This document shows positions 99 to 15,626 of a stretch of 58,602 bases of DNA, in pieces. Numbering within the stretch: position 1 is the first letter of the stretch; every line of letters starts with the position of its first letter. Origin of the DNA: a virus. Taxonomy: Duplodnaviria; Caudoviricetes. The notes under the pieces are model-generated. The model was not told the origin of the DNA. It worked only from the letters and a program-made list of their open reading frames with translations, and made no database searches. Location: IMG/VR virus record IMGVR_UViG_3300030380_005307, positions 1 through 58,602 of that record. The stretch is one strand, 5' to 3'. The translations under genes were made by a program, and so were the position numbers.

Positions 99-1115
99 AA
101 GGATGATCGTGCTGTCTTTTCCTACGATAACCTTTTTGGCTCTACCCAAATCTTTAAAAGTCATAAGGCTCAGATCATCACCGGTGCTTTCTGAAAAATA
201 AGTAGCACCTACCGAGAGAGCGATGTCATGCATCAGCTCATGACGTTTGTATCCAAAATTGGGAGGTATTATGGTACAAAGTTTCAGATTGTTCTTCATG
301 ACGTTGGCCGCCAACGTATTTGTTACGTTTTGGGAACACGGTGCTACTATTAATAATCTCTTGTTCTCAGCGATAATTGGCTTTAGAACATTCTCAATAG
401 ATAGGATATTATTAATCTCAGAGTCAGAAACTAACACATGCACGTCCTCAAGTATACACTCATCCTTCTTGTGATTGTTTATGAACAGGTGGCTTGAGTA
501 CCCCCGGTCAACCTTTATTCCTTGGGTGGTTTCAAAAGTGGTATCAGAATTTTGACTCTTCTCAACTGTTACGATCCCATTGTCTCCTACCTGGTTATAA
601 GTATCTGATATAATCTTACCTATGCCAGGATCATTGTTGGATGAGATTGTTGCAACATCTAACAATAAATCTTTAGTGACTGGAATAGATCTCTTTTTTA
701 ATTTACTAACTACTTTATCACACAAAGTTGCAAGCTCACGCAATATTTTGGTTTTATTGTCAGTTGGACCTATATGGTCAAATGCATATTTTACAAGAGC
801 CTCTGTTAATACAATCGCTGTAGTTGTACCATCACCAGCTTCTGAAGCTGTCCGATCTGCAGCCTCTTTCATCATCTGTACCGAGAGGTTCTCAACTGCA
901 TCCAAAAGCTGAATGCTTTTAGCTACCGTTACTCCATCTTTAGTAACTGTGATTCCGTGAGTGTGCTGGGGACTCTCAATTAACACAGTGTTACCCATTG
1001 GACCCAATGTGCTCTTTACAGCATCTGATAATTTTGTAATACCTGAAATAAGTTTTGATCTGGCATCTTTTCCAAAATGCAAATCTTTTGGCGAATATCC
1101 TCCCGAATTTTCCAT
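1..1115 (-). CDS. groEL: Chaperonin GroEL, N-terminal part (continues at 58503..58014; 534 aa in total)
   Basis: Manual translation from ATG 1115: MENSGGYSPKDLHFGKDARSKLISG...STLGPMGNTVLIE...VTKDGVTVAK...AGDGTTTA. Joined length is 1605 nt, in frame. This part is missing from the ORF track. Confidence 0.96.
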   Translation of the reverse strand, partial: MENSGGYSPKDLHFGKDARSKLISGITKLSDAVKSTLGPMGNTVLIESPQHTHGITVTKDGVTVAKSIQLLDAVENLSVQMMKEAADRTASEAGDGTTTAIVLTEALVKYAFDHIGPTDNKTKILRELATLCDKVVSKLKKRSIPVTKDLLLDVATISSNNDPGIGKIISDTYNQVGDNGIVTVEKSQNSDTTFETTQGIKVDRGYSSHLFINNHKKDECILEDVHVLVSDSEINNILSIENVLKPIIAENKRLLIVAPCSQNVTNTLAANVMKNNLKLCTIIPPNFGYKRHELMHDIALSVGATYFSESTGDDLSLMTFKDLGRAKKVIVGKDSTIILKDEDKVSMDDIEKRVNELWEAHKITKKKADKD

Positions 1116-1140
1116 TTGATTTAATTTGATTTAATTATTA

Positions 1141-1148
1141 CAAATATA
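1141..1148 (-). promoter_or_regulatory. Bacteroidota-type -7 promoter element (TATATTTG) for groEL/groES
   Basis: Matches TAnnTTTG about 25 nt upstream of the groEL ATG. Confidence 0.7.
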
Positions 1149-1156
1149 TACAAAAG

Positions 1157-1457
1157 TGACGAGTGTCAATTTTTTTCCCCTATACTTATATATATTTTTT
1201 TTTATTTATTAGTAGTTTTCTTGAAGCTTACGCGAGGAATAATTAACATTTCTGACACATGTGTTGATTATCAATGATTTAGGTATTTAAAATTAACACA
1301 ATATCGTCACAATCCGTGTCAATAATGTTGGTTTTGATTAAATCTTACTTGTTAAATAGCCAAACTAACCAAAACAAAATAACAACACTAACGTAAAATA
1401 TCAAACTCTCCGATGTCATTACATAAATTTTTGACACAATGTGTCAACTTTTGACAC
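1157..1457. repeat. Origin-like region A: GTGTCA/TGACAC-type repeats flanking an AT-rich tract
   Basis: Non-coding, with multiple GTGTCA/TGACAC/YAACAC copies including the inverted pair TTGACACAATGTGTCAA at 1431-1447. Shares AATATCGTCACAAT (1300-1313) with 11201-11214. Confidence 0.55.
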
Positions 1458-1484
1458 AAAAAAAGGCTACCCTAAAGTAGCCTT
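1458..1484 (-). terminator. Intrinsic terminator
   Basis: GGCTAC/GTAGCC stem followed by a T-run on the - strand, downstream of ORF 1511..1726. Confidence 0.75.
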
Positions 1485-1510
1485 CCCACAATGAATAATT
1501 AACCAACAAA

Positions 1511-1726
1511 TCAAAAATTATCCAACAAACTCTTTCGCATTTCTGCCCTCCTTATTCCATCAGCTATCTTACTAACCTCACGATCCCTATCAATCGCCCT
1601 CTTAATGTCAGCCATCTGCTGTATTCCATTCATACTATTAGGCCGACCGTTGATCAACCTACCATCCTTTACGTACAACCCGTCTACCATGTCACTAATT
1701 GTACTGTTCTTATTCATATGTGCCAT
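1511..1726 (-). CDS. Hypothetical protein (71 aa)
   Basis: ORF track; followed by a terminator. Confidence 0.75.
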   Translation of the reverse strand: MAHMNKNSTISDMVDGLYVKDGRLINGRPNSMNGIQQMADIKRAIDRDREVSKIADGIRRAEMRKSLLDNF

Positions 1727-1865
1727 ATCCTTTAATTTTTATCGATATTAATCCTATATATATTATTAATTCACTCCAATTATGATCCTTATCCCTAGAA
1801 TAGTAGGACCAACCCAATGCAAACCCTACTCGTAATCTATTATACAACTCTAAAGTATAAGACAT
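1710..1865 (-). CDS. Small hypothetical protein (51 aa, MSYTLELYNRLRVGFALGWSYY...)
   Basis: Manual translation; a TATCTTTG promoter element lies immediately upstream (1869-1876). Confidence 0.6.
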   Translation of the reverse strand: MSYTLELYNRLRVGFALGWSYYSRDKDHNWSELIIYIGLISIKIKGYGTYE

Positions 1866-1868
1866 TAT

Positions 1869-1876
1869 CAAAGATA
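1869..1876 (-). promoter_or_regulatory. -7 promoter element TATCTTTG, first promoter of the - strand arm
   Basis: Consensus match at the point where the two transcription directions diverge. Confidence 0.6.
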
Positions 1877-2294
1877 CAAATTTATTAGATACATAGAAGC
1901 TTTGTATTATACTATACTATACGCGCGCTGGCCGTCAAAGCAAACGCATTTTTTTTGACTGGGGTGGGGTGACACATGATCGGTGCATTGCAGATTTTTT
2001 GCCGTTTTGTCTGACTGACTATCAGGTACTTACAAGGTCGTCAACTGGGGAGCATCCTTGGTGATCCGTATTTTGTTTGACGTTTCGCAAAAATAATCCT
2101 CTTTGAGGAACGCTCACTGCGTTCGCTTAATACCCCAAAAGAGCAATTTAAAACCTAATTAAAGTAGATAATCCAGTCCGGGATCCAGCCCGACCACCAC
2201 AAGATCCCGGTCAGATTTGACACAAAACAACATTTCAAACATTTGATCAAACAAATCAATGTAAATCTCATTAGTTATTTATATAAATTCTATG

Positions 2295-2302
2295 TATATT
2301 TA
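2295..2302 (+). promoter_or_regulatory. Putative early promoter -7 variant (TATATTTA)
   Basis: One mismatch to TAnnTTTG, in an AT-rich context upstream of the first + strand gene. Confidence 0.45.
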
Positions 2303-2384
2303 CATCATGAGAGACAAACAACATACTGAAATCAAACGTAACTCACTCACTCTCAGTGAGTTACCTAACTTAAACCCTATTAAA

Positions 2385-2879
2385 ATGAAAAATTCAACAA
2401 CAACAACAGGTTATCACTTCACCTACAAAAAATACGATGTACAGATTACTCGGCTTTTCTGGGGGGGGAACAAAGAAGGTGATTGGGCAGTCGATGTCTT
2501 CAGACCAAATGGTTATAGATTATCGAGTAAATGTTTAGCTACTACTGATGACTGCGAGTCGTTTGCCAAAGATCAGGTAGAAGATCACATCAATTCAATG
2601 ATTGATCCGGATATGATCGATTCAATCGTTTGGTATGGACTTAATTACAATCCTAACTTTATCGATGAATGTTGGTCAGATGATCCATCCTTAGCTAATC
2701 ATTTAAAAGACAAGTTTGCGATGTGTCATGAAGGAACTGATGAATTGAAAGGATGGGTAAAGATAAGGTTGTCATATGGAGTCTTCACAAGATTCTTAAC
2801 CATGTTGGACAATGGTAACAGAGAGAAGTTATACAAATACATTCTTGAGAGATATAGCCACAGAAAAGGATGGTTATAA
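2385..2879 (+). CDS. Early hypothetical protein (likely start MKNSTTTTG)
   Basis: ORF track gives 2292..2879, but the extension covers the promoter and a leader hairpin; ATG 2385 has an A-rich leader. Confidence 0.75.
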   Translation: MKNSTTTTGYHFTYKKYDVQITRLFWGGNKEGDWAVDVFRPNGYRLSSKCLATTDDCESFAKDQVEDHINSMIDPDMIDSIVWYGLNYNPNFIDECWSDDPSLANHLKDKFAMCHEGTDELKGWVKIRLSYGVFTRFLTMLDNGNREKLYKYILERYSHRKGWL

Positions 2880-2884
2880 TCAAT

Positions 2885-2940
2885 TGCCTAATTGGATGTA
2901 CCGGGGTTCGATTCCCCGGTAGGCATCGACAATAATGTCA
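2885..2940 (+). ncRNA. tRNA-like (T-arm minihelix) intergenic element E1
   Basis: TGCCT/AGGCA outer stem, ATTGGAT bulge, ACCGGGG-TTCGATT-CCCCGGT T-arm, then TC and a GACA-ATAA-TGTC hairpin. Confidence 0.75.
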
Positions 2941-2960
2941 AACAACAAACAACAAAAATT

Positions 2961-3908
2961 ATGAATAATCAAGACAAAATTTTCAAACAAGTAAACGACA
3001 TCGTTTTAGAGGGGCTAAAGCGAGATGGGATGAAATGGTTCATGCCATGGAAACCGGGTGAAGAGTTTCAACCTATGAATCACTCCTCCAAAACCTATTA
3101 CAAAGGGTTCAATGTGTTCATGCTCAATGCAGTCATGACCTATGAAAGATATGAGTTTAACCAATGGTTGACCTACAAGCAATGCAAAGCTAATGGTGGT
3201 CAGGTTAATAAAGGTGAGAAATCAACCCAGATATACTTTTGGAAGATCGGATACTTTGATCAAAAGACTGAGAAATACCTATCTGATAAAGAGATCAAGA
3301 AAGCTAATCTATCAGAAAAGATTGTGGTTGATGGTACAACACAAAACCGATACAAAAAGACATTCTCAGTCAGATATTACAATGTGTTCAATGTCGCCCA
3401 ATGTGATGGCATTGATCCAATTGTATTTGATCAGTCTGAGATCACAAAGGCAAACGAACCAATCAAGGTTGCTGATGATCTTGCAAAAAGCTATGTTGAC
3501 CGGGATGGTAAGTTAAGACTCGAACACCTACAAGATCGTGCATTTTACAATGTCAACAGAGACATGGTCAATATGCCTAAACTTGAATCGTTTGTAGACT
3601 CTGATTCGTACTACAAAGTACTTTTCCATGAGTTAGCCCATTCAACTGGACACAAGGATCGAATGGATCGTAAAAGTCTTACAGAAGTATCCAATTGGGG
3701 TGATAACACCTATGCCAAGGAGGAACTGGTCGCTGAGATTTCAGCGATGTACATCTCAGGGATGTTGGGGCTTGATCCGAAAGACTGTGATCAGAATAGT
3801 GTGGCCTACATCAAGGGATGGTGTAAGCATCTATCTGATAAGCCAAAGGAATGCTTGTATGCGATGCAACAAGCGACAAAGGTTGTTGCCTACATCCAAG
3901 GTAACTAA
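2961..3908 (+). CDS. ardC: ArdC-like anti-restriction protein (ssDNA-binding N-domain plus zincin-like domain)
   Basis: W..PW, Y.G.N, WLTYKQ...GGQV.KGEK, VFNVAQ, HELAHSTGH and YAKEELVAE motifs. Real start is probably MNNQDKIF at 2961. Confidence 0.9.
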   Translation: MNNQDKIFKQVNDIVLEGLKRDGMKWFMPWKPGEEFQPMNHSSKTYYKGFNVFMLNAVMTYERYEFNQWLTYKQCKANGGQVNKGEKSTQIYFWKIGYFDQKTEKYLSDKEIKKANLSEKIVVDGTTQNRYKKTFSVRYYNVFNVAQCDGIDPIVFDQSEITKANEPIKVADDLAKSYVDRDGKLRLEHLQDRAFYNVNRDMVNMPKLESFVDSDSYYKVLFHELAHSTGHKDRMDRKSLTEVSNWGDNTYAKEELVAEISAMYISGMLGLDPKDCDQNSVAYIKGWCKHLSDKPKECLYAMQQATKVVAYIQGN

Positions 3909-3913
3909 TCAAC

Positions 3914-3970
3914 TCCGGGATTGGATCATGGAGGGGATCGTTTCCCCTCCCCGGATCGACAATATTGTCA
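3914..3970 (+). ncRNA. tRNA-like intergenic element E2
   Basis: TCCGG/CCGGA outer stem, ATTGGAT bulge, GGAGGGG-ATCGTTT-CCCCTCC arm, then TC and a GACAATATTGTC hairpin; compensatory changes relative to E1. Confidence 0.75.
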
Positions 3971-3989
3971 TTAACTAACAACAATAATT

Positions 3990-4385
3990 ATGTTAAAATC
4001 AGTATCATTTAAAAACTTGCCGAACAAATGCAAGTGTGGTATGTGGAACGTTGACCCAAAGGATTATGATGTATCGAAGTATGTCGGTATTCGTGTGGTT
4101 GATATTCCTAAATGCCGATCAGCAAAGAAGTTCAATTCTTTAGGGATCGGAGTAGCTTGTTTCGATGGGATCGAGTATCAAGGGTTTGGAGTCAAACACT
4201 ATGTTGACTATCACCGAGGGTTTGGTGATAGCAATGGATGTTCTATGACAACTGGATTTGAGGATGGAACAATGGCTGATCTTCTTGACCATGTAACTTG
4301 TGGAAGTGAAGTTTATCTTCATTGGGAATATTTAAAGGGTCATCCTAAAGCGTATGATTGCGAATGTAAAACCGAGAAATCATGA
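3990..4385 (+). CDS. Cys-rich early hypothetical protein
   Basis: ORF track; A-rich leader after E2. Confidence 0.75.
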   Translation: MLKSVSFKNLPNKCKCGMWNVDPKDYDVSKYVGIRVVDIPKCRSAKKFNSLGIGVACFDGIEYQGFGVKHYVDYHRGFGDSNGCSMTTGFEDGTMADLLDHVTCGSEVYLHWEYLKGHPKAYDCECKTEKS

Positions 4386-4630
4386 AACAAAGACTATTAA
4401 AATTTATTTGGAACGCCTTGTCTAAAATGGACAAGGGAAGGAAATGGGATTATGAATCAGCACCATATTGTGGTCATCATCATCAGGGATTTGAAAACAA
4501 GTACATCTCTGAAAGCTATCACGAAGGTGAAGGTGGAGGATTCTCAAAAGTCTCATTGTTGGGTTACATCATTGAGATGGACAATGTGTACCAGTCAGGT
4601 ACAATGTATTATTTAGTTAAAAAGATGTAA
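4382..4630 (+). CDS. Early hypothetical protein
   Basis: ORF track; ATGA overlap with the upstream gene. Confidence 0.75.
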   Translation: MKQRLLKFIWNALSKMDKGRKWDYESAPYCGHHHQGFENKYISESYHEGEGGGFSKVSLLGYIIEMDNVYQSGTMYYLVKKM

Positions 4631-4657
4631 CCGATGTCAGGGAGGGTTACACCTCCC

Positions 4658-4708
4658 TCTGTCGATAGGTGTGTGCCTATCCTGATGAGATCAAAAGATC
4701 GAAACGGA
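4658..4708 (+). ncRNA. Type III hammerhead ribozyme (predicted cleavage after GUC, 4663)
   Basis: Stem III UCUGU/ACGGA; GUC 4661-4663; stem I GAUAGG-UGUGUG-CCUAUC; core CUGAUGA 4682-4688; stem II GAUC-AAAA-GAUC; GAAA 4701-4704. Confidence 0.9.
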
Positions 4709-4729
4709 TTATTAACTAACAACAAAATT

Positions 4730-5035
4730 ATGTTACATTCAAAATTTAACACATCGTTTGATCTGACTGAACGTTCAGTTACGATCCACATTACTTACCG
4801 AGTCAATGGTGAGAATCACTACTTATCACCTTGGTTTTTATTTGATGATCAAGGTAAGCTAATAATTGATGACAATCGAGTACTAAAGGATTGTTTTAAG
4901 TACATAGCAAGACATATTAAAACTACCATGTCAAAACTCCAACAATATTTAGAGAAAGGATATCAAGAGTATCAAGAGGAGTGGCTAATGAATTATGACC
5001 ATTTAGAAACCATCAAACAAACATTAAACGATTAA
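4730..5035 (+). CDS. Early hypothetical protein (start MLHSKF)
   Basis: The ORF-track extension from 4634 runs through the ribozyme. ATG 4730 has nearly the same leader as ATG 3990. Confidence 0.75.
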   Translation: MLHSKFNTSFDLTERSVTIHITYRVNGENHYLSPWFLFDDQGKLIIDDNRVLKDCFKYIARHIKTTMSKLQQYLEKGYQEYQEEWLMNYDHLETIKQTLND

Positions 5036-5039
5036 GATT

Positions 5040-5306
5040 ATGTCACACAAAATTTTTCATGGCTCTCTTCAAAAACGAGAGCAAAGGGAACTGGCGAATT
5101 GGAAGAAAGATTTGCCAAGTATAGTCAGAGAATTTATGGCTACCAATCCATCAGAGGATGCGATTGAGGACTTTTATACCACAAAGGTAATGCGATATAC
5201 CAAAGATAGTATAGAAGAGATTCTAAAGGATGATTTAAATAACATTGAGACTACTGTGGAAATAGTAAACCATTTCGGTAGTTTCTTCAAACCTAACAAC
5301 AAATAA
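5040..5306 (+). CDS. Hypothetical protein
   Basis: ORF track; tight operon spacing. Confidence 0.75.
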   Translation: MSHKIFHGSLQKREQRELANWKKDLPSIVREFMATNPSEDAIEDFYTTKVMRYTKDSIEEILKDDLNNIETTVEIVNHFGSFFKPNNK

Positions 5307-5316
5307 ACCAAACAAA

Positions 5317-5514
5317 ATGACAATAAAAGAATTAAAAGATGTTTTGAAAACTTACAACGACAATGATGTTGTTGTAGTAGAAGTACATGATACAATCCTT
5401 TATGAGGATTTGTATGAATTTGACATTGATTCCATAAAGATGGACAAGAATAGAAAAGAGATAAGGATTTGTCCAAAAAACCATAAAGAAGAAGTTAACT
5501 TAAACCAACAATAA
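5317..5514 (+). CDS. Small acidic hypothetical protein
   Basis: ORF track; A-rich leader. Confidence 0.7.
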   Translation: MTIKELKDVLKTYNDNDVVVVEVHDTILYEDLYEFDIDSIKMDKNRKEIRICPKNHKEEVNLNQQ

Positions 5515-5515
5515 A

Positions 5516-5713
5516 ATGAAAGAGCAAAGAGTGTATATGATAGACACAACATTTGATGATTTGGATATTCCAAAGTTTGATGATAAAAGAACAGACAAAA
5601 TTTTTATGGAAATATCTGAACAACAAGGCAATGTATATTCTTTAGGAGGATTTACAAAGGCATTTAATAGAGGAGAAATAAACTCGAACACCGATATAAT
5701 AAGAATAATTTAA
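5516..5713 (+). CDS. Small hypothetical protein
   Basis: ORF track. Confidence 0.7.
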   Translation: MKEQRVYMIDTTFDDLDIPKFDDKRTDKIFMEISEQQGNVYSLGGFTKAFNRGEINSNTDIIRII

Positions 5714-5724
5714 AAACCAATAAA

Positions 5725-5898
5725 ATGAAAGACAAGAAAACCTTTAGTTTTTATGTTCCTTGTAGTATGATGTATTACATAGAAGCAAAAAACGAAAAAG
5801 AAGCAAGACAAATTTTAATAGATCAAGGAGGGATTTCTATTCAAGGGGATTTACTAATTGATAAATCAGATTATTTAGAAGCTGAAATATATAATTAA
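5725..5898 (+). CDS. Small hypothetical protein (57 aa, MKDKKTFSFYVPC...)
   Basis: Manual translation; fills the operon gap. Confidence 0.7.
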   Translation: MKDKKTFSFYVPCSMMYYIEAKNEKEARQILIDQGGISIQGDLLIDKSDYLEAEIYN

Positions 5899-5913
5899 TT
5901 TAAAACCAATAAA

Positions 5914-6087
5914 ATGAAAGAATTAAATATTTGTTTACGTTGTGATCATTTATCTGAAGATGTATATGAAGATGAAACATTTGATATAGATGATTACCAC
6001 AGAATACAATGCCCAAAATGTTATAGTAGTGAATACTACCTTGCAACAGAGGTAGAAGAATTTATACATAAACTTAAATTAAAATAA
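5914..6087 (+). CDS. Small zinc-ribbon protein (57 aa)
   Basis: Manual translation with a CLRC...CPKC pair. Confidence 0.7.
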   Translation: MKELNICLRCDHLSEDVYEDETFDIDDYHRIQCPKCYSSEYYLATEVEEFIHKLKLK

Positions 6088-6088
6088 A

Positions 6089-6397
6089 ATGAGAATGATA
6101 GATTTAGATAAAGAAAAAGTTGAAGGAGGATGTCTTTATTGGACTGCTTTAGATGTAGCATATAAAGTAGAACATTGGGTAGAAATGCCTTCTGATGTTC
6201 AAGAAGTTTATCAAATAATCGATGAACACACAGAAGAACACCGAGAATATTTACAAGGATTAATGCAAGATGCTATTGAGGAAAATCACGAAACCATATG
6301 CGATAAAATTAATGAATGCCTTTGGGATTATATGATTGAAAATAAAACAGAAATAATCCAAACGCTTATTGAAAATAAATATTTAAAACTAAAATAA
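6089..6397 (+). CDS. Acidic hypothetical protein
   Basis: ORF track. Confidence 0.75.
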   Translation: MRMIDLDKEKVEGGCLYWTALDVAYKVEHWVEMPSDVQEVYQIIDEHTEEHREYLQGLMQDAIEENHETICDKINECLWDYMIENKTEIIQTLIENKYLKLK

Positions 6398-6398
6398 A

Positions 6399-6644
6399 AT
6401 GAAAATAATAACAAACACAAAAGTCATTGAAAAAGCTATCTCCTATGATGGGGATAGCTATATGGTATGGGAGTATACCAATGACAACAAGAACAAAGAG
6501 ATAGCCATCATGGATGATACCGGATATGATGTAAGCCTAAAGACCAAAGTACTGGAGGATGGTAAAGTAAAATCAGAAGTACATTTACTTTGTCCAGACC
6601 CGGAGGAGTACATACATGAACAATTTATAAACTTTAAAAATTAA
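6399..6644 (+). CDS. Hypothetical protein
   Basis: ORF track. Confidence 0.7.
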   Translation: MKIITNTKVIEKAISYDGDSYMVWEYTNDNKNKEIAIMDDTGYDVSLKTKVLEDGKVKSEVHLLCPDPEEYIHEQFINFKN

Positions 6645-6649
6645 ATAAA

Positions 6650-6808
6650 ATGAAAAAAAGATTTACAACAGAATTGGGAATATTTTTAAATGAATATGCA
6701 AAAAATAATTTTGACTGTGATGGTTATGACCAATTACCTGAAAACACAAAAATGTGGATTAGAAATGATATAGTTAATAAAATGGACGAATTATTAAATT
6801 TAAATTAA
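6650..6808 (+). CDS. Small hypothetical protein (52 aa)
   Basis: Manual translation MKKRFTTELGIFLNEYAK... Confidence 0.65.
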   Translation: MKKRFTTELGIFLNEYAKNNFDCDGYDQLPENTKMWIRNDIVNKMDELLNLN

Positions 6809-6813
6809 AAAAA

Positions 6814-6921
6814 ATGAGAATATATAAAGAACACAAAGATGGAGAGATCGTGGCAATTTTACACAGAGATTTTCCAAAGGTTTATGATCAGATATTAGAA
6901 TATTTAGATCAAGAAGGATAG
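6814..6921 (+). CDS. Small hypothetical protein (35 aa)
   Basis: Manual translation MRIYKEHKDGEIV...; its stop codon overlaps E4. Confidence 0.55.
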   Translation: MRIYKEHKDGEIVAILHRDFPKVYDQILEYLDQEG

Positions 6922-6973
6922 CATGGTGCATTGGGAGGTTCGATTCCTCCCTGTCCACGAGTAATAATGCTCA
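6916..6973 (+). ncRNA. tRNA-like intergenic element E4
   Basis: GGATA/TGTCC outer stem, TGG-containing bulge, GGGAGG-TTCGATT-CCTCCC T-arm, then AC and a GAGTA-ATAA-TGCTC hairpin. Confidence 0.75.
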
Positions 6974-6992
6974 ATAATTTAATCAACATATT

Positions 6993-7256
6993 ATGTCAGA
7001 ATTTGAAACAAAAAATTTAATTGTAAAATGGCAAAACTCAACAAGGAAGTTACTTGTTGGTAAAACGATCAAACACATCAGGTACTTAAATGATGAGGAA
7101 ATGGAGGCTCTTATGTGGCATTCAAGACCAATAGTAATTGTTTTTACTGATGGAAGTTTACTTATTCCCCAATCAGATGATGAGGGAAATGATGGTGGTG
7201 CAATGCTCTACCAAGACAAAGATGGTAATCATGATGTAATCCCAGTAATTTATTAA
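6993..7256 (+). CDS. Phage hypothetical protein (DDEGNDGG motif)
   Basis: ORF track. Confidence 0.8.
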   Translation: MSEFETKNLIVKWQNSTRKLLVGKTIKHIRYLNDEEMEALMWHSRPIVIVFTDGSLLIPQSDDEGNDGGAMLYQDKDGNHDVIPVIY

Positions 7257-7282
7257 GATGGCACATAACTACAACACTCCTG

Positions 7283-7600
7283 ATGAGAATATCAGGGAAG
7301 AAAATGAAGAGAACAAATAAAATAATGGTAATAATTAAAAACTTTGGTAAACGACATGGGTATGGCACAAATATCCATGTCGCTTTTATCATTAACGCTT
7401 TTTATAAACGTAGAGCGGGTGCAAATCTTGATATATTTGTAGAATCAATTGTTAATCATAATGGGATACAATTTATATCCTTACGAGAAAACGGAACTAA
7501 TAACTATTTAAATTTGGATTATATTGAAAAGTATGATCTGTACGAAATAATTATTAACGAAGTAAATAAAGACTATGAAAGCAGTTTTACAATATATTAA
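7283..7600 (+). CDS. Hypothetical protein (start may be 7325)
   Basis: ORF track. Confidence 0.6.
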   Translation: MRISGKKMKRTNKIMVIIKNFGKRHGYGTNIHVAFIINAFYKRRAGANLDIFVESIVNHNGIQFISLRENGTNNYLNLDYIEKYDLYEIIINEVNKDYESSFTIY

Positions 7601-7826
7601 AACCAAGCGAAAACAACGCAAATTGAGAATTGGTGAGCGTGATAAACTTTGGGATCAGTTAATAAAGAACGACCAAAAATGTAGAGAATTAAGGCTACAA
7701 CTGGCCAGGAAAAACAAGAAGGCTTTGACAAGACAAGATTACATTATTAACGACGATAAGGTTAGACAAATCATCTATTTATCACTACAACAACTTAAAA
7801 TTAAAAACCAACTAAAATATGATTAA
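7575..7826 (+). CDS. Basic hypothetical protein
   Basis: ORF track. Confidence 0.65.
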   Translation: MKAVLQYIKTKRKQRKLRIGERDKLWDQLIKNDQKCRELRLQLARKNKKALTRQDYIINDDKVRQIIYLSLQQLKIKNQLKYD

Positions 7827-7977
7827 AATTAAAGACGAATCGGTAGACAACCCAAACGATATAGGATATCTGCGGGCGAGTAATTATTTTTTACGCGAAG
7901 AAAATAAAAAATTAAAAGACAAACTATCGAATGTAAGTAAGTCATTGCATGATAGCTATCTTTTTACAAGAAAATAG
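7819..7977 (+). CDS. Small coiled-coil protein (52 aa)
   Basis: Manual translation MIKIKDESVDNPND...; ends before the terminator. Confidence 0.6.
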   Translation: MIKIKDESVDNPNDIGYLRASNYFLREENKKLKDKLSNVSKSLHDSYLFTRK

Positions 7978-8000
7978 TTTTGTTTGTTTGTTGATGATTG

Positions 8001-8029
8001 GGGGAAACTTTAGAGTTTCCCCTTTTTTT
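8001..8029 (+). terminator. Intrinsic terminator ending the early operon
   Basis: GGGGAAACT-TTAG-AGTTTCCCC followed by T7. Confidence 0.85.
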
Positions 8030-8030
8030 A

Positions 8031-8261
8031 TTATTTCTTAGCATCCAACAAACCTCGTTCGTATTCCAGTTGTTTTTCAATCTGAAGGATACGATCTTCA
8101 AGTTTATTTATAACAATAATCTTTTTGTCAAGACGTTCATGCACCATAGTTAGTTCATTCTTGATGGCAGTAAACTCAGCGAATATACCACCTGCAGTAA
8201 AGACTGCAACCAAAAAAGAAATGACCAGAGATAAGTTATTTTTTAGGAAAGTATCTGCCAT
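8031..8261 (-). CDS. Small membrane-anchored coiled-coil protein
   Basis: N-terminal hydrophobic helix followed by a heptad region; lone - strand gene. Confidence 0.7.
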   Translation of the reverse strand: MADTFLKNNLSLVISFLVAVFTAGGIFAEFTAIKNELTMVHERLDKKIIVINKLEDRILQIEKQLEYERGLLDAKK

Positions 8262-8282
8262 ATGGTAAAGGTAAAAAAAATT

Positions 8283-8440
8283 ACTTTCCCATTACAGAAC
8301 ACGTAAAAAATACGTTTTAAGCACGTTTTTAACACGTAGACAAAACAAGGGTTTGAAAAAAAAACATTGGTTTTTTCCATACTTTCCAAACTTTCCAACC
8401 TTTTATTTAAATTATATCAATAAAATATATTATCTTTATG
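8283..8440. promoter_or_regulatory. Divergent control region with phased repeats
   Basis: ACGT x4 at exactly 11-bp spacing (8301, 8312, 8323, 8334); TTTCCA x3 at 9-bp spacing (8374, 8383, 8392); TATCTTTA -7 variant at 8431. Confidence 0.55.
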
Positions 8441-8464
8441 AAAATTTAATTTAATATTAATCAA

Positions 8465-8656
8465 ATGCGTTTAACCAACAACCCAAGCATTGATGCGTTC
8501 GCTGATGACGAGTATCAATCCCAAGAGTTTATCAATAAACCAGAGAGAGAGCGAAAGCAAAAGCCTATCGCTACCTCTGATGATTTGATCTCTTTAGGTC
8601 GTGCAATCAGCACTGACCCTAACATTAACCCTTTATTTAAAATTTTATTCAAATGA
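8465..8656 (+). CDS. Hypothetical protein
   Basis: ORF track; first gene of the replication operon. Confidence 0.65.
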   Translation: MRLTNNPSIDAFADDEYQSQEFINKPERERKQKPIATSDDLISLGRAISTDPNINPLFKILFK

Positions 8657-8952
8657 AGCAGTACATTTTTGACCAGTTTGTTGAGAACATTCTCAAGCAT
8701 ACTGGGTTTACAAAGGAACAACTCTTTGCTAATAATCGTAAGAGTGATGTTTCGGATGCGAGAAAATTTTTGTATAAGCTATGTAAAGATCGAGGCCTAT
8801 CCAACAAAGCTATTGAAACGTACATGGAAGAGAATGGTTATATATGTTATTCAAACACCATCCCTCAAGCATTATCTACGCTTGAAAAACAAATAGCAAA
8901 TGATCCTGACTACTCGGTGATCTTACAAAAATTGTCTAACGTAGATGCTTGA
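8653..8952 (+). CDS. DnaA C-terminal (domain IV)-like HTH DNA-binding protein
   Basis: FTKEQLFANNRKSDVSDARKFLYKLCKDRGLSNKAI resembles the DnaA_C signature (L...R...V..AR...YL......S...I). Confidence 0.6.
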   Translation: MKQYIFDQFVENILKHTGFTKEQLFANNRKSDVSDARKFLYKLCKDRGLSNKAIETYMEENGYICYSNTIPQALSTLEKQIANDPDYSVILQKLSNVDA

Positions 8953-9328
8953 CCTGAAGGATATATATATTCAAGCTGAAGATGATCCTGCGACAACAAA
9001 TTTAGATGGCAAAGGATACGATGCTCAAATGTTGCATGGAGTACAAATTATGCGTGACCATGCTACAGAGAATATTAAAATTTTTAATCCAAGAGGTAAA
9101 GAATACTACGATGAACTCACTTCAGCTGAATATGAATTATTCAACCAAGGGTGGCGTAAAGGTGTTTTAAATTTAGTTCTCCAGGTATATAGAAATCGCT
9201 TGGATGTTATTGAAAAAAAAATACCTCAAGTATTAAATAACCACAAGACGTTGTCTGCTTTAAAAGAGAGAAGGAGTGGACTACTTAAAAAGTATTTCAA
9301 ACTAACACAAAAGTTAAACCAACTATGA
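8945..9328 (+). CDS. Hypothetical protein
   Basis: ORF track. Confidence 0.75.
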   Translation: MLDLKDIYIQAEDDPATTNLDGKGYDAQMLHGVQIMRDHATENIKIFNPRGKEYYDELTSAEYELFNQGWRKGVLNLVLQVYRNRLDVIEKKIPQVLNNHKTLSALKERRSGLLKKYFKLTQKLNQL

Positions 9329-9930
9329 AAAATTATTACAAAGCATTGGCAGGATTTCAACAAGAATGTCCTGTCTTATTAAAGGATACCGATGGGTACA
9401 ACTATAAATACATTGATCTGCCGAAGATCATCCACACAATCAATCCTCTGATGAAAAAGTACGGATTAGGTTTCACACAAAAATTAGGGACAAACAAAGA
9501 AACGCAACAACCATGTCTAACCACAACTATCTTTCACTTTGAGAGTGGTGAGTTTGATACCGATACTGTTGACATTCCTATAGTGGATATGAAGAGCCAA
9601 AACTTATATCAATCTCTTGGTTCGGGAACTACTTATTTCAGGAGGTATGCGTTGTCATGTCAACTCGGTATAGTTAGTGATAAAGACCTTGATGCGTATG
9701 GGGAAGAAACTAAACCAGTAGCTAAAAAGGAATTAGACTTAGGAGTTCCAAAAAAGAAAAGCAATGTTCCAACTGGTAATGTACCTGACGATTTAATTAC
9801 CATCAAAAAAGGTGTTGATAATGGTAAAGATTTAGAAAAGGATATTATTCCTTGGCTAAAAAAAACATACGATGATCTAACAATCAAACAAATTAAAAAA
9901 CAAGCACATGAGCAAGAAATTATCAAATAA
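9325..9930 (+). CDS. ERF-family single-strand annealing protein
   Basis: YKYIDL...GLGFTQ and QSLGSGTTYFRRYAL...GI...DLD ERF motifs. Confidence 0.85.
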   Translation: MKNYYKALAGFQQECPVLLKDTDGYNYKYIDLPKIIHTINPLMKKYGLGFTQKLGTNKETQQPCLTTTIFHFESGEFDTDTVDIPIVDMKSQNLYQSLGSGTTYFRRYALSCQLGIVSDKDLDAYGEETKPVAKKELDLGVPKKKSNVPTGNVPDDLITIKKGVDNGKDLEKDIIPWLKKTYDDLTIKQIKKQAHEQEIIK

Positions 9931-10720
9931 GCAAATTATTAAGAAACTAAGGGATGATGAAAACTACTACGGTGAGTTTGGTAAGCAATGGCTGTCTAAC
10001 TCAAACATCCAAGATTTACAACCAAAAACATTTAAGCAGTTTGGTAGGGCCCAAGAAGACAATGAAAACTTTATCAAGGGAAGGTATTTTCATCAGCTTA
10101 TTTTGGAACCCAACAAAGCAGTAAGTTTTCCAGTTTTTACAGAAACTAAAACAAGGGGGGCCAAATATGAAAAATATCTACAGGACAAAGGTATAACGTC
10201 TGCCATACTCGAACACGAGGCTATATTAATGGAAGAGTTAAGAGATGAATTATTAAACATAAAAAATTATGGTGGTGCTAAACAACAAGTGGCTGATCTT
10301 ATAACAGACAAGGATGCTGAGTATGAGGTTCCAATAATTGGGGAGATTTTTGGTCACCCCTTTAAAGCTAAAGCTGACATTATCTCACAAGGAATTATTA
10401 TAGATCTTAAAACTACAACGGCAAAGAACGACCAAGAATTTGTTTGGTTGGGCAAGAACAAATATTTCTATGACACCCAAGCTTACATCTATCAAACGTT
10501 ATTTGATAAGCCTATGACGTTTATTGCTATAGATAAAAATAAAAAAGTCTATGGCGATACTGGTGAAAGTTACCATGAGATATATGTCTGTCCAGTTAGC
10601 GAAGAAAGTGTTTTAGAGGGCAAAAAAAAGGTAGAATCTGCTATACAGATTTATGAACATTATTATGGTAAAGACAAAAAAGAAGACATTAGAAATGTAA
10701 TATATAATCTTAAATTTTAA
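9908..10720 (+). CDS. PD-(D/E)XK exonuclease (RecE/DUF3799-like)
   Basis: LSNS, G..FH..ILEP, E.P, KAKADI...IIDLKTT and Y..QAYIY motifs; adjacent to ERF. Confidence 0.8.
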   Translation: MSKKLSNKQIIKKLRDDENYYGEFGKQWLSNSNIQDLQPKTFKQFGRAQEDNENFIKGRYFHQLILEPNKAVSFPVFTETKTRGAKYEKYLQDKGITSAILEHEAILMEELRDELLNIKNYGGAKQQVADLITDKDAEYEVPIIGEIFGHPFKAKADIISQGIIIDLKTTTAKNDQEFVWLGKNKYFYDTQAYIYQTLFDKPMTFIAIDKNKKVYGDTGESYHEIYVCPVSEESVLEGKKKVESAIQIYEHYYGKDKKEDIRNVIYNLKF

Positions 10721-10723
10721 ACT

Positions 10724-10987
10724 ATGAGTGAATTTGTACATCAACCTGGAAGGGGAAGTATTTTTAAAAACGACAGTAAACAAGGCAAACAACCCGACTA
10801 TACCGGCAAAGGAAAAGATATTGAGGGAAGAGATATTGAAATAGCCGCTTGGGTAGCAACAAGTGAAAAAGGGAACAAGTATCTTTCTATTAAAATGCAA
10901 TATCCCAAAACAGAAGAAGATAAGGTACCAAAGAAGGCACCTGAGCCAAAGATAGAAGAGCCTGAAGACCCTGATTTACCATTTTAG
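10724..10987 (+). CDS. Putative ssDNA-binding protein (DUF736-like)
   Basis: FKN...QPDYTG...AAW...G.KYLS core with an acidic tail ending DLPF. Confidence 0.65.
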   Translation: MSEFVHQPGRGSIFKNDSKQGKQPDYTGKGKDIEGRDIEIAAWVATSEKGNKYLSIKMQYPKTEEDKVPKKAPEPKIEEPEDPDLPF

Positions 10988-11004
10988 GTAACCCCAACTA
11001 AACT

Positions 11005-11033
11005 AGGGGGAGTTATGCTCCTCCTTTTTTTTT
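11005..11033 (+). terminator. Intrinsic terminator
   Basis: GGGGGAG-TTATG-CTCCTCC stem followed by a T-run. Confidence 0.75.
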
Positions 11034-11214
11034 GTGTCAAGTGTTAAATTTATTTTACTTTACTTATTTATTTATTATTATATATATATTTACTTTTTTT
11101 AAATCTGTAATGAAACTCAAAACCAACATTTTCAACACTATGCAATCTATTGCAAGGATACACAAATAATAATCAACATAAATCCAACACCAACATGTCA
11201 AATATCGTCACAAT
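11034..11214. repeat. Origin-like region B upstream of the primase-helicase
   Basis: GTGTCAA-GTGTTAA, then a ~60-bp AT-rich tract, then CAACAT/CAACAC repeats; same layout as 1157-1313. Confidence 0.6.
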
Positions 11215-13609
11215 ATTTAAAAATATTAACTCAACTACCTCTCCTTTTTTTAGAGAAGTAGAAATAATTTTAAAAAGAATTAAAGAGGGTGCCTCAAAAG
11301 ATTTAGTAATATCGATCAGAAAAGAGCAAGATAAGTCAAAACGAAATGAGTTAAAAAAACAACTACCATCAATTTGTTTTAGCGGTCAGTTTAATAAAAG
11401 GTCAGACGTTTCTCTGCAAGAACATAGTGGACTAATATGTTTAGATTTTGATGGCTATTTAAAAAAGCAAGAACTCTTATCTGACAAAACTAAATTTTCT
11501 AAAAACAAATATGTTTATTCTGTATTCATATCTCCATCTGGTAAAGGGCTAAAAGTTTTAGTTAAGATACCACCCAAACCTGAAAACCACATTGGTTATT
11601 TTAATGCTTTAGAAAAACATTTTAAATCACAATACTTTGACAAAACATCAAAGAATATAAGCCGAGTCTGTTATGAATCTTATGATCCACTAATTGAAAT
11701 AAACCAAGACTCTTTTGTGTGGGAAGAATATGAGGAAATAGAATATAAAGAAGTAAACGCTAACAATGGTATAACTACCATACCTATTACAGATGAAAAC
11801 AAAATAGTAAGCATACTTGTTAAATGGTGGCAAAAAAAATATCCAATGACAGAAGGGCAAAGAAATCAAAATGCTTTTATTCTTGCAATGGCCTTTAATG
11901 ATTTTGGAATATCTTCTACAACAGCATCACTTGTTATAAGTCAGTATCAAAGCAAAGATTTTAATTCAACAGAAATATCTAAAACAATAAAATCTGCATA
12001 TGCAAATACTAAAAACTTTAATACTAAATATTACGAGGATCAAGATAAGCTAGATGAGATACAACAAAGGCTTAGAAGAGGTGAGTCAAAAAAAGTAATA
12101 CGTCAAGACTTAGAGGAGTCGAGCTTGGCGGATGAGGTTATAGACTCCGTGATCCAAACTGCTGAAGAAAATAATTCTGTAAAGTTTTGGACGTTAAGCA
12201 AAAAAGGTGTTGTAAAATCTATTCCTTTAATATTTAAAAGGTTTTTAGAATCCAATGGGTTTTTTAAATTTTGTCCAGAAGGGCAAAAAAATTATGTATT
12301 TGTTAAAGTTACTAACAATCTTATTGATCATACAACAGAAAAAGATATTAAAGATTTTATTCTTAATCATTTACTTGATTTGGAGGACATGGCTATATAT
12401 AACTACTTTGCTGATCAAACTAGGTTATTTAAAGAGGACTTTCTTTCGTTACTAGGAACTATTGATATTTATTTTATTGAAGATACACTAGATACTTCTT
12501 ATCTATATTATCAGAATTGTGCAGTAAAGATTACAAAAAACAAGGTTGAGGCCATTGATTATCTTGAATTAGATGGGTATGTTTGGAAAGATCATGTCAT
12601 AAACAGACCATACAAATCTTGCAAAGAACTAGACAATGATTTCAAATTGTTTTTGGATAATGTTGCTGATAAAAAAACAGACAGAATAATAAGTCTAGAA
12701 TCAACACTAGGGTATTTAATGCATGCTCACAAAAATATATCTTACTGCCCTGCTGTAATATTAAACGATGAACACATATCAGATACAGCAAATGGTGGAA
12801 CTGGTAAAGGTATTTGGCTACAAGCCGTAGGTCACATGAAAAAAGTAGTAATGATTGATGGTAAATCTTTTGCTTTTGAGCAATCCTTTCCATATCAGCT
12901 TGTGTCAGCCGATACGCAAGTGATTGTTTTTGATGATGTAAAAAAATACTTTGATTTTGAAAGACTGTTTAGTGTTGTCACCGAAGGACTAACCCTTGAG
13001 AAAAAGAACAAGGATGCTATTAAAATTCCTTTTTCAAAATCTCCTAAAGTTGTAATAACAACCAACTACACCATAAAGGGCGCAGGTACATCATTCGCCA
13101 GGCGTAGGTGGGAGCTAGAATTAGCATCCCATTATAACGATAAGTATACGCCTATGGATGATTTTGGTAGGTTTATATTTGGTGAGGAGTGGGATGAAAA
13201 TGATTGGTGTAAGTTTGACAATTATATGATAAGCAATCTCCAATTATACTTAAAGGAGGGATTAATTGTAAGTGAATCTGTAAATGGGGAAATGAAAAGA
13301 TTTATCATGGAAACCAACGGAGATTTTTGTGAGTGGTGTGGACTTACAGACACTAGTCAATCTAATCCTATGTTACAAGTAAACACTAGAATAAGGCTTA
13401 ATGATATATACTATGATTTTGTTAACGCATACCCTGATTATGCTAGAGGCTCAAAATTTTCTGTATCTCATTTTAAGTTTAAAAACTGGATGATTTCATA
13501 TTCTAAATATACCCAAGGAATAGAAGCCGAAATAGGTAGAAGTAATGATGGTAAATGGATAAGAATTCGTCCAAGTAGCGAAACTCAGATTCAACAAAAA
13601 CTTATATGA
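11195..13609 (+). CDS. Primase-helicase (BT4734/VirE-N-like primase domain, PriCT-like domain, SF3-type helicase)
   Basis: KKQLP...FSG.F...SGLICLDFD, FISPSGKGLK, EGQRN; Walker A GGTGKG and Walker B IVFDD. Likely ATG is 11195. Confidence 0.85.
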   Translation: MSNIVTIFKNINSTTSPFFREVEIILKRIKEGASKDLVISIRKEQDKSKRNELKKQLPSICFSGQFNKRSDVSLQEHSGLICLDFDGYLKKQELLSDKTKFSKNKYVYSVFISPSGKGLKVLVKIPPKPENHIGYFNALEKHFKSQYFDKTSKNISRVCYESYDPLIEINQDSFVWEEYEEIEYKEVNANNGITTIPITDENKIVSILVKWWQKKYPMTEGQRNQNAFILAMAFNDFGISSTTASLVISQYQSKDFNSTEISKTIKSAYANTKNFNTKYYEDQDKLDEIQQRLRRGESKKVIRQDLEESSLADEVIDSVIQTAEENNSVKFWTLSKKGVVKSIPLIFKRFLESNGFFKFCPEGQKNYVFVKVTNNLIDHTTEKDIKDFILNHLLDLEDMAIYNYFADQTRLFKEDFLSLLGTIDIYFIEDTLDTSYLYYQNCAVKITKNKVEAIDYLELDGYVWKDHVINRPYKSCKELDNDFKLFLDNVADKKTDRIISLESTLGYLMHAHKNISYCPAVILNDEHISDTANGGTGKGIWLQAVGHMKKVVMIDGKSFAFEQSFPYQLVSADTQVIVFDDVKKYFDFERLFSVVTEGLTLEKKNKDAIKIPFSKSPKVVITTNYTIKGAGTSFARRRWELELASHYNDKYTPMDDFGRFIFGEEWDENDWCKFDNYMISNLQLYLKEGLIVSESVNGEMKRFIMETNGDFCEWCGLTDTSQSNPMLQVNTRIRLNDIYYDFVNAYPDYARGSKFSVSHFKFKNWMISYSKYTQGIEAEIGRSNDGKWIRIRPSSETQIQQKLI

Positions 13610-14835: not shown

Positions 14836-15626
14836 TATCAAGACCAATTATAGTTACCTCGTTATTTAATATAGGCAGGGATGTTTGGGATACATATACC
14901 GTATCCTATCACACCTACCTATGGTGGATGAAAAATACATTGTCATTAGATGCCGAGTTTGTTATATACACTGATGAACTATTGTATGACAAAATTATAG
15001 CAATTCGTAAAGAGTTTGATCCAACTATGATTAGCACTAAAATAATCAAGTGTAGTTTGAAGAACATACCGAGTTTTAAAATGTATAATAAGAGGCTTGA
15101 AATGCTAATGTACTCTGAAGACTTTAAGAAGAAAATTGTTCATCAAGTCCCTGAGATGACCAAGCCTTTGTACAATACTATTATATTTAATAAACTTGGA
15201 TTTATTAAAGATGCAAAAGATAATAAATATTTCCCTGGTGACTTTTATATTTGGGCTGACGCTGGTGGCCTTAGAGATGATCTTCAAAATTATAAAAGTA
15301 AGTCATGGCCCAACCTTGAAAAGCTAAATTTGTTGGCGTCAACAAATAAGGTTACCTTTTTTTCTCATCAACCTGATTTTAGTATAACTGATAGTGAGTA
15401 CCATGCTTTGTCTCAGATAAGATATATACAGGGGGGGAGCATCTTCTGCCCACCTGATTGCATTGATGATCTGCACGTTCAATTTAATCGAACTGTAAAC
15501 CAATGTTTAAATAGTGGATACATAGGTAGTGAAGAGAAGATTTTGGATATAACATATCACTCGGATAAGACTAAGTACAACCTAATTACTTGTGACTGGA
15601 GAGAATACTATGATAAATTTTTGTAA
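14832..15626 (+). CDS. HtrL/YibB/WlaTC-like putative glycosyltransferase
   Basis: IVTSLFNIGR, VIYTD, PE...PLY....NK..F, YIWADAG, GG.IF and SEE..L motif pattern. Confidence 0.7.
   Translation: MISRPIIVTSLFNIGRDVWDTYTVSYHTYLWWMKNTLSLDAEFVIYTDELLYDKIIAIRKEFDPTMISTKIIKCSLKNIPSFKMYNKRLEMLMYSEDFKKKIVHQVPEMTKPLYNTIIFNKLGFIKDAKDNKYFPGDFYIWADAGGLRDDLQNYKSKSWPNLEKLNLLASTNKVTFFSHQPDFSITDSEYHALSQIRYIQGGSIFCPPDCIDDLHVQFNRTVNQCLNSGYIGSEEKILDITYHSDKTKYNLITCDWREYYDKFL

Follow-up and report, generated by a model that had tools for sequence, protein, structure and literature searches.

Alternation of hammerhead ribozymes and tRNA-like minihelices in early-region spacers of an uncultured marine phage and its relatives: candidate mRNA-processing modules

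In this study, we analyzed structured intergenic spacers in the early region of an uncultured marine phage. The window, IMG/VR virus record IMGVR_UViG_3300030380_005307 at its full length of 58,602 bases (completeness estimate 98%), comes with DNA sequencing runs labeled marine metagenome. The genes between ~2292 and 15626 are encoded by the + strand, the large structural genes by the - strand. The product of 2961-3908 is an ArdC-type anti-restriction protein (Pfam ArdcN, E 5e-22; MPTase-PolyVal, E 1.7e-30). Start codons in the window have A-rich leaders upstream, without a Shine-Dalgarno sequence, which we take to suggest a Bacteroidota host. Four spacers in this region hold structured elements (Table 1), three of them resembling part of a transfer RNA (tRNA; E1, E2 and E4) and one a type III hammerhead ribozyme (E3). 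All four span the interval from the upstream stop codon to ~20-35 nucleotides (nt) before the next ATG. Comparison with relatives supports the interpretation that hammerheads and tRNA-like elements are interchangeable processing modules, and we think it moderately probable that the early-region spacers are messenger RNA (mRNA)-processing modules of two kinds, functional alternatives that are exchanged together with gene cassettes among phage lineages.

Table 1. Positions of the features discussed, in the window unless a related locus (L number) is named.
Feature	Position	Strand	Remarks
E1, tRNA-like	2884..2925	+	TGCCTA/TAGGCA acceptor-like helix; bulge ATTGGATGTA; T arm CCGGGG-TTCGATT-CCCCGG; 12 stacked pairs
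Small hairpin after E1	2928..2939	+	GACA-ATAA-TGTC; 2-3 nt past E1; then leader and ATG 2961 of the ArdC-like gene
E2, tRNA-like	3914..3955	+	TCCGGG/CCCGGA; bulge ATTGGATCATG; T arm GAGGGG-ATCGTTT-CCCCTC
Small hairpin after E2	3958..3969	+	GACA-ATAT-TGTC; then leader 3970-3989 and ATG 3990 (open reading frame 3990-4385, P0003)
Upstream open reading frame, P0004	4382..4630	+	82 amino acids; stop TAA 4628-4630; structured spacer begins 1 nt later
CGATG	4632..4636	+	can pair with TGTCG (4660-4664) across the predicted cleavage site; alternative to stem III
P0 GC hairpin	4639..4658	+	AGGGAGG-GTTACA-CCTCCCT; 4639-4645 / 4652-4658; abuts stem III
E3, type III hammerhead	4658..4708	+	Rfam RF00008, descriptor match, covariation
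Stem III	4658-4662 with 4704-4708	+	part of the type III hammerhead; open helix
Cleavage triplet GUC	4661-4663	+	directly 5' of stem I; predicted cut after C4663
Stem I	4664-4669 with 4676-4681	+	hairpin GATAGG-TGTGTG-CCTATC (4664-4681)
Core CUGAUGA	4682-4688	+	conserved hammerhead core
Stem II	4689-4692 with 4697-4700	+	stem-loop II 4689-4700
GAAA	4701-4704	+	A4704 pairs with U4662 (A15.1-U16.1 pair present)
A-rich leader ATTAACTAACAACAAAATT	4711..4729	+	precedes ATG 4730 (open reading frame 4730-5035, P0002); near-identical to leader 3970-3989
E4, tRNA-like	6916..6956	+	GGATAG/CTGTCC; bulge CATGGTGCATTG; T arm GGAGG-TTCGATT-CCTCC; 11 stacked pairs
Small hairpin after E4	6959..6972	+	GAGTA-ATAA-TGCTC; then leader and ATG 6993 (open reading frame 6993-7256)
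L023 sites	2026, 2154, 2715, 2970, 3972		core in cis at the first only
L085 sites	2101, 2507, 2966, 3954		core in cis at the first only
L058 sites	2606, 2964, 3926, 4869, 5477, 6281		core in cis at the fourth only
Third motif, L002	near 5960-6015, 6260-6310, 8480-8535		
Third motif, L005	near 4000-4057, 6950-7006		
Third motif, L009	near 5905-5960, 6950-7003		
Third motif, L025, L026, L029, L031, L032, L077			further loci

The spacer at 4631-4729 reads in order P0, the 5' strand of stem III with GUC, stem-loop I, CUGAUGA, stem-loop II, and GAAA with the 3' strand of stem III; the hairpin that the original prediction had placed before the ribozyme is thus present as P0. In a 161-nt search the Rfam model RF00008 scored the hammerhead at 35.2 bits (E 1.9e-6), and the orthologous spacer of L001/L017 scored 36.5 bits. 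The whole window gave no Rfam match at the gathering threshold, an E-value-mode Rfam search of 2800-7100 (4.3 kilobases, kb) missed the hammerhead, and the RF00008 profile found no match in the window's own full record. We also scanned 81 sequences (540,336 bases) with a descriptor that demands the core, a UH site and all three helices. It identified 23 hammerheads, every one on the + strand, compared with 0-2 matches per set in 20 dinucleotide shuffles, and the catalytic core is intact in all hammerhead copies.

Alignment of five type III hammerheads (those of the window, L017, L097 and L101, and the one upstream of ArdC in L088) provided independent support for a conserved structure. In this alignment 99% of cells are paired, versus 39-51% in controls with slid partners, and 7 of the 21 pairs show compensatory change. 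P0 is kept in all five, with 100% of its cells paired, and covaries (GGGAGG/CCTCCC versus GGGGGT/ACCCCC). A search of viral contigs with an exact 30-nt pattern of the hammerhead gave no matches, and a 29-nt pattern moved towards stem I found six loci. The window's hammerhead consequently is known from four sequence contexts (six loci and the window), each with a GC hairpin abutting stem III; the 6-nt loops of those hairpins are GTTACA, AGTAAT, AGCAAT and CGCAAG, none of which is a T loop. By sequence and covariation, 4658-4708 is a complete predicted type III hammerhead, beyond what chance would produce, and P0 is a predicted part of the same module. A separate type III hammerhead, scoring 40.6 bits, lies at 5100-5160 of L006 (= L018 2103-2157); it precedes the first early-operon gene, in the 5' untranslated region, rather than occupying an intergenic spacer, and would trim the primary 5' end ~23 nt upstream of the ATG.

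E1, E2 and E4 have a common plan, consisting of a 5-6-nt strand, a 10-12-nt bulge with TGG, a GC-rich stem of 5-6 base pairs (bp) with its loop, and a 3' strand, for a total of 11-12 stacked pairs. E1 begins 4-5 nt past the stop TAA at 2877-2879 and E2 5 nt past the ArdC stop (3906-3908); the 5' strand of E4 includes the stop TAG (6919-6921) of an open reading frame of 35 amino acids read from ATG 6815. Twenty different copies were collected from the window and eight related phages. Their T stem is 98.3% paired with compensatory change in five of six pairs, the G-C pair closing the loop (by position G53-C61 of tRNA) is invariant in 20/20, and all 20 have TGG in the bulge. The total stack measures 11-13 bp in 19 of the 20, the exception being the L037 element, whose parse varies between analyses. 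For the acceptor-like helix, a flank-shuffle test was uninformative because the long T hairpins alone supply most pairs; it was replaced by a test of each element, and combining 17 different elements by Fisher's method gave p 1e-5. Among these copies, complementarity is preserved in about 15 distinct acceptor sequences. E1, E2 and E4 are accordingly described here as predicted tRNA-like minihelices with a T arm, an acceptor-like helix and a TGG bulge, in which the bulge and the T loop form a candidate elbow, in which TGG would mimic G18/G19 of the D loop.

A covariance model built from the tRNA-like copies (R1) matched exactly E1, E2 and E4 in the 58.6-kb window up to E 10, with 42.9 bits for E1 (a seed member), 35.6 for E2 and 41.8 for E4. 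Over 73 sources it gave 22 matches, all on the + strand; as these are its own seeds and their duplicates, R1 adds no independent members. Genuine tRNA genes were considered and rejected, since a full cloverleaf with D arm and anticodon arm was not found. ARAGORN called no tRNA gene in the window, no Rfam tRNA match was obtained in the window at the gathering threshold or in 2800-7100 in E-value mode, and the likeness of the elements to other Rfam families was insignificant (mascRNA, 17.5 bits, E 6.2; T arm of transfer-messenger RNA (tmRNA), 11.9 bits, E 0.082). In 27 related loci ARAGORN called three real tRNA-Arg genes and one 98-nt "tRNA-Trp" at L018 3906-4003, spanning the end of ArdC through an E2-type element. 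The L018 call is probably spurious and prompted by the T arm; ARAGORN did not call the same element in L019.

The loop of E2, ATCGTTT (3937-3943), is TTCGATT with positions 1 and 5 exchanged. It also occurs in L017, L037 and L040 with differing acceptor helices, and because it is kept on three different acceptor helices we regard it as a maintained variant rather than decay. In tRNA those two loop positions correspond to the reverse-Hoogsteen partners T54 and A58, and the exchange looks like covariation inside a T loop.

Evidence that the two kinds of element share a slot came from loci anchored on ArdC in viral contigs, initially 11 and then 80, which reduce to 66 distinct flank pairs. By automatic call, the slot upstream of ArdC holds a tRNA-like element in four loci, a hammerhead in three, a hammerhead site without a core in two, a third motif in one and none of these in 54, with two not assessable. 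Downstream of ArdC the corresponding numbers are nine, four, two, ten and 40, with one not assessable; one of the nine tRNA-like loci was also flagged for the third motif through a false match in coding sequence. In the closest relative, L017 (ArdC identity 77%), the place that E1 takes in the window, L018 and L019 is occupied by a type I hammerhead, which ends 17 nt before the same ATGAATAAT start. That hammerhead belongs to a type I family of 13 aligned copies in which 95.8% of cells are paired and 10 of 13 pairs show compensatory change. In L088 (ArdC identity 36%), ArdC is followed directly by the hammerhead of the window, with stem-loop I (18 nt) unchanged and stem II altered by two compensatory changes, and is preceded directly by a second type III hammerhead. 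Both kinds of element occur within one phage in the window, L017, L018, L027 and L045. The two do not coincide: no hammerhead core lies within 120 nt of any of 20 tRNA-like elements, and none of the 23 descriptor hammerheads overlaps an R1 match.

The elements are also placed alike with respect to the neighboring genes. Relative to the upstream stop codon, 13/20 tRNA-like elements begin at -6 to +7 nt, 12/18 type I hammerheads at -5 to +8 nt, and 4/5 type III hammerheads at +24-28 nt with P0 filling the gap. Most hammerheads (19/23) end 13-23 nt before the next ATG, and the tRNA-like elements of the window's clade end ~35 nt before it, with the small hairpin filling the difference. The predicted downstream 5' end falls at the small hairpin, or 1-3 nt before it, in all four window spacers. 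An alignment proposed in the original prediction was confirmed, in which GTC (4661-4663) followed by stem I corresponds to ATC followed by GACA...TGTC, the matches being at 2925-2939 and 3955-3969. Its claim of a common slot likewise held, as the positions are equivalent and the elements replace one another around ArdC in relatives. Structures, covariation, strand, position and mutual replacement among relatives are all documented directly by these comparisons of sequence.

Several type I assignments deserve comment. The L001 and L009 hammerheads were accepted on the descriptor and covariation: Rfam returned a weak RAGATH-1-hammerhead match for that of L001 (21.2 bits, E 0.31) and no match for that of L009, and an RF00163 search of five related records gave a single partial match of 15.6 bits. 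The upstream spacer of L040 was tried as a type II hammerhead and rejected by eye, its stem II not pairing.

A third motif was observed in the same slots, ~25-40 nt before the next ATG. It consists of CACC-AA, a covarying GC hairpin, YTTT-GGTGG and TAGAA, and it is not present in the intergenic regions of the window. In a 121-nt search the form CACC-AA-hairpin-YTTTGGTGGTAGAA had no Rfam match at E up to 10. A copy in L028 was missed by the automatic call and found by eye.

We propose the following mechanism for the four spacers. Transcription of the + strand early region (~2292 to 15626) most likely yields a polycistronic mRNA, in which the spacers would act as RNA-processing modules of two kinds. 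The hammerhead would cleave itself after C4663. The upstream mRNA would then carry the P0 hairpin at its 3' end, terminated by a 2',3'-cyclic phosphate, and the downstream mRNA would have a 5'-OH and begin where the stem I hairpin begins, at its base. The tRNA elbow is a recognition feature for ribonuclease (RNase) P, RNase Z and the CCA-adding enzyme. In E1, E2 and E4 the 41-42-nt minihelix would present such an elbow on an acceptor/T stack of 11-12 bp, and host RNase Z or an equivalent may cut just past the discriminator, 1-3 nt before the small hairpin. Possibly, RNase P also cuts on the 5' side. A 3' cut is favored, by which the tRNA-like element would remain on the upstream message and cap its end, as P0 would.

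A number of points weigh against this interpretation. The hammerhead's 35.2 bits are below the Rfam gathering score of 48.5, which we ascribe to its short stem II (4 bp) and short loops. Most ArdC slots have no recognized element (54/66 upstream and 40/66 downstream), and the descriptor misses imperfect hammerheads visible by eye upstream of ArdC in L027, L045 and L091. Singly the acceptor-like helix is weak (p 0.39 for E1, 0.07 for E2 and 0.20 for E4; range 0.005-0.39), and it is 54.8% paired in the model-fitted alignment, a value that we attribute to shifts of the bulge by 1-2 bases between copies. Transcription as a single unit, every cleavage event and the acting host enzyme are what we infer from the sequences. 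The chemistries of the two predicted cuts differ, with a 5'-OH and cyclic phosphate versus a 5'-phosphate and 3'-OH, so that the modules would not be strictly equivalent. In addition, in E4 (6916-6921, GGATAG) and in three L035 elements the upstream stop codon falls within the 5' strand of the acceptor-like helix; at one of the three (3874-3879) the gene concerned is ArdC itself. A terminating ribosome would have to melt such an element, and RNase P, if it cut on the 5' side, would leave an mRNA without a stop, which argues against a 5' cut there and is the reason for favoring the 3' cut. Finally, the spacers coincide with breakpoints in gene content and could therefore have a purely recombinational role.

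That alternative, in which the spacers are mainly recombination junctions for gene cassettes, the folds are passengers or selfish elements and RNA cutting is incidental, seems to us rather unlikely. It is consistent with the exactness with which gene content changes at the spacers: L006 and L007 are without window genes 3990-5035 and E3, E2 there joining the orthologue of window 5040-5306, and upstream of E1 the window, L017, L018 and L019 have different genes. It would also account for the nearly identical leaders after E2 and E3 and for the presence of one hammerhead, with the same stem-loop I, in phages as distant as the window and L088. However, recombination needs sequence identity rather than structure, and the helices here covary as their sequences change. 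Furthermore, hammerheads (23/23) and tRNA-like matches (22/22) lie exclusively on the transcribed strand, and the catalytic core is intact in each copy. An improbable explanation, in our judgment, is that the tRNA-like elements are themselves the product, as ~42-nt small RNAs that, for instance, engage host tRNA-binding enzymes or tRNA-directed defense nucleases as decoys or competitors, or that are CCA-tagged, the hammerhead having an unrelated role. The conserved T loop and TGG bulge do imply a folded elbow that many tRNA-binding proteins recognize, there is the weak Rfam likeness to mascRNA and the tmRNA T arm, and the elements adjoin an anti-restriction gene in the earliest operon. Yet with no anticodon arm they could not decoy anticodon nucleases, and their acceptor sequences vary freely over ~15 different helices. 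A shared processing role explains more easily why relatives fill the same slots with hammerheads or a plain hairpin motif.

The original prediction had proposed that all four spacers are homologous and that E3 is a diverged tRNA-like spacer whose T loop decayed and which gained a hammerhead core, possibly gated by translation through CGATG and TGTCG; this history is very improbable. The four sequence observations on which it was built were all confirmed at the coordinates given. The spacer begins 1 nt after a stop codon, and the leader ATTAACTAACAACAAAATTATGTTA (4711-4735) differs from that after E2 (3970-3995) by a single inserted T, the one-base difference that had been reported. Those leaders fit the insertion of a three-gene cassette equally well, because L006 and L007 join E2 straight to the 5040-5306 orthologue. 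The G-rich/C-rich arm of the hammerhead does resemble those of E2 and E4, with p 0.0065 and 0.014 under plain shuffling, but the resemblance does not exceed that of hairpins of the same composition, p being 0.22 and 0.31 under a null that preserves the hairpin. R1 has no match to the hammerhead spacer at E up to 10, which speaks against the homology of all four, and P0, conserved and covarying in four hammerhead contexts with unrelated 6-nt loops, does not look like a decayed T arm. The comparison of T-loop decay with the presence of a core in relatives yielded no intermediates (0/20), and no relative was found with a T-loop arm before a hammerhead core. Pairing of CGATG with TGTCG is as feasible as had been claimed: folds containing it reach -25.1 (4 bp) or -24.2 (5 bp) kcal/mol versus -24.7 for the hammerhead secondary structure, and it appears in minimum free energy folds, so that it is nearly isoenergetic with, and would compete with, stem III. 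Translational gating is thereby thermodynamically possible, but two other contexts of this ribozyme (L097-099 and L101/102) lack the pairing.

Three related phages (L023, L085 and L058) have four to six intergenic sites each with a common plan, namely a variable GC hairpin, 3-5 conserved nt ending in GTC, a conserved 6-7-nt word and a leader. This plan corresponds to the stem III 3' strand, C17 and stem I 3' strand of a type I hammerhead. The whole records of L023 (40.8 kb) and L085 (32.3 kb, complete) have a single core each, and the site words of these two occur on one strand only, reversed-word controls giving 0. One core cutting several sites in trans is a candidate explanation for all three phages; the rival reading is that the core-less sites are a conserved leader co-opted by one hammerhead. 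A literature search found no natural hammerhead acting in trans on several sites. More broadly, it is conceivable, though unlikely, that this marine phage group uses punctuation of its mRNAs in the style of mitochondria, with minihelices freely exchanged for hammerheads and with the core of L023, L058 and L085 apparently acting in trans on 4-6 core-less sites. If true, such exchange would give phage hammerheads a concrete function.

The preferred interpretation, two kinds of mRNA-processing module at one position, has partial parallels in known systems. In phage T7, RNase III sites lie between the early genes, and the host nuclease cuts the polycistronic mRNA into hairpin-ended messages. The spacers described here are likewise structured intergenic sites in a predicted early mRNA, with a different enzyme and fold. 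Clusters of hammerheads that flank prophage genes, the anti-restriction gene ardA among them, have been described, and the cutting of long phage transcripts was suggested as their role (Perreault et al. 2011, PMC3088659). The parts of that report considered here describe, as in our phages, type I and III hammerheads between phage operon genes, on the transcribed strand and beside an anti-restriction gene, and the proposed role is the same, namely the cutting of long transcripts into gene-length mRNAs. Our case differs in having an ArdC-like rather than an ArdA protein, in concerning an uncultured marine phage and in slots that are alternatively tRNA-like, which those parts do not mention. Consequently, hammerheads flanking phage anti-restriction genes are already published, and it is their alternation with tRNA-like elements that we did not find in print.

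For the tRNA-like elements, the closest counterparts are the t-elements of plant mitochondria, which direct the RNase P and RNase Z cuts that form mRNA ends (Forner et al. 2007, PMC1920247). In that study, t-elements are incomplete tRNA-like folds within mRNA precursors and have the conserved T-arm sequence GGTTCRANYCC. The mRNA ends fall at their borders, the elements are interpreted as signals for RNase P and RNase Z, and some lie over the end of a reading frame, as E4 does. Our elements have a T arm of the GGTTCRANYCC type with G-C closing and an acceptor/T stack of ~12 bp. Unlike t-elements they belong to a DNA phage, their ends are predicted whereas those of t-elements were mapped experimentally, and they alternate with ribozymes. 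Non-tRNA substrates of bacterial RNase P from phages, as listed in one review (PMC11143913), include the C4 antisense RNA of P1/P7 and M3 RNA, and polycistronic mRNAs are substrates also. These resemble the present case in being phage or operon RNAs with a tRNA-like feature cut by a host tRNA-processing enzyme (here the cutting is predicted); they are single regulatory RNAs or ad hoc sites, whereas our elements form a repeated, covarying minihelix family that would serve as intergenic punctuation. Theta (hepatitis delta virus-like) ribozymes adjoin phage tRNA genes (Kienbeck et al. 2024, PMC10879173) and similarly represent a small self-cleaving phage ribozyme that replaces a protein enzyme of tRNA-type end processing. 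They mature an adjoining real tRNA, whereas here ribozyme and tRNA-like element alternate at one position and would serve mRNAs.

That sister phages have at the same junctions either a hammerhead or a mimic of an RNase P/Z substrate points to one shared job. Potentially, this is the formation of defined mRNA ends between early genes, beside an anti-restriction gene that needs immediate expression, by a pair of modules of which one is host-dependent and the other autonomous; the proposal is directly testable. If it is true, tRNA-type punctuation extends from organelles to DNA phages. A 2019 review stated that more work is needed to define the purpose of phage hammerheads (PMC6765202), and the alternation reported here would tie them to a defined role. 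Our search found no publication in which tRNA-like elements punctuate phage mRNAs or alternate with hammerheads in doing so, subscription journals and supplements lying outside that search.

Searches of a phage collection identified no cultured close relative of the window phage, the best match to its ArdC protein having 35% identity and a DNA search with window 2200-7300 giving 0 matches. A scan of 1100-7400 for promoters of sigma-70 type found 36 sites versus 30.0 +/- 5.8 in shuffles, a difference too small to be informative, and the same scan found no terminator-like sites at the four window spacers. Several TGACAC / GTGTCA half-sites, with the palindrome TTGACACAATGTGTCAA among them at 1431-1447, lie in the long non-coding region (~1240-1460) that separates the two divergent blocks of genes. 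These half-sites look like repressor operator sites.

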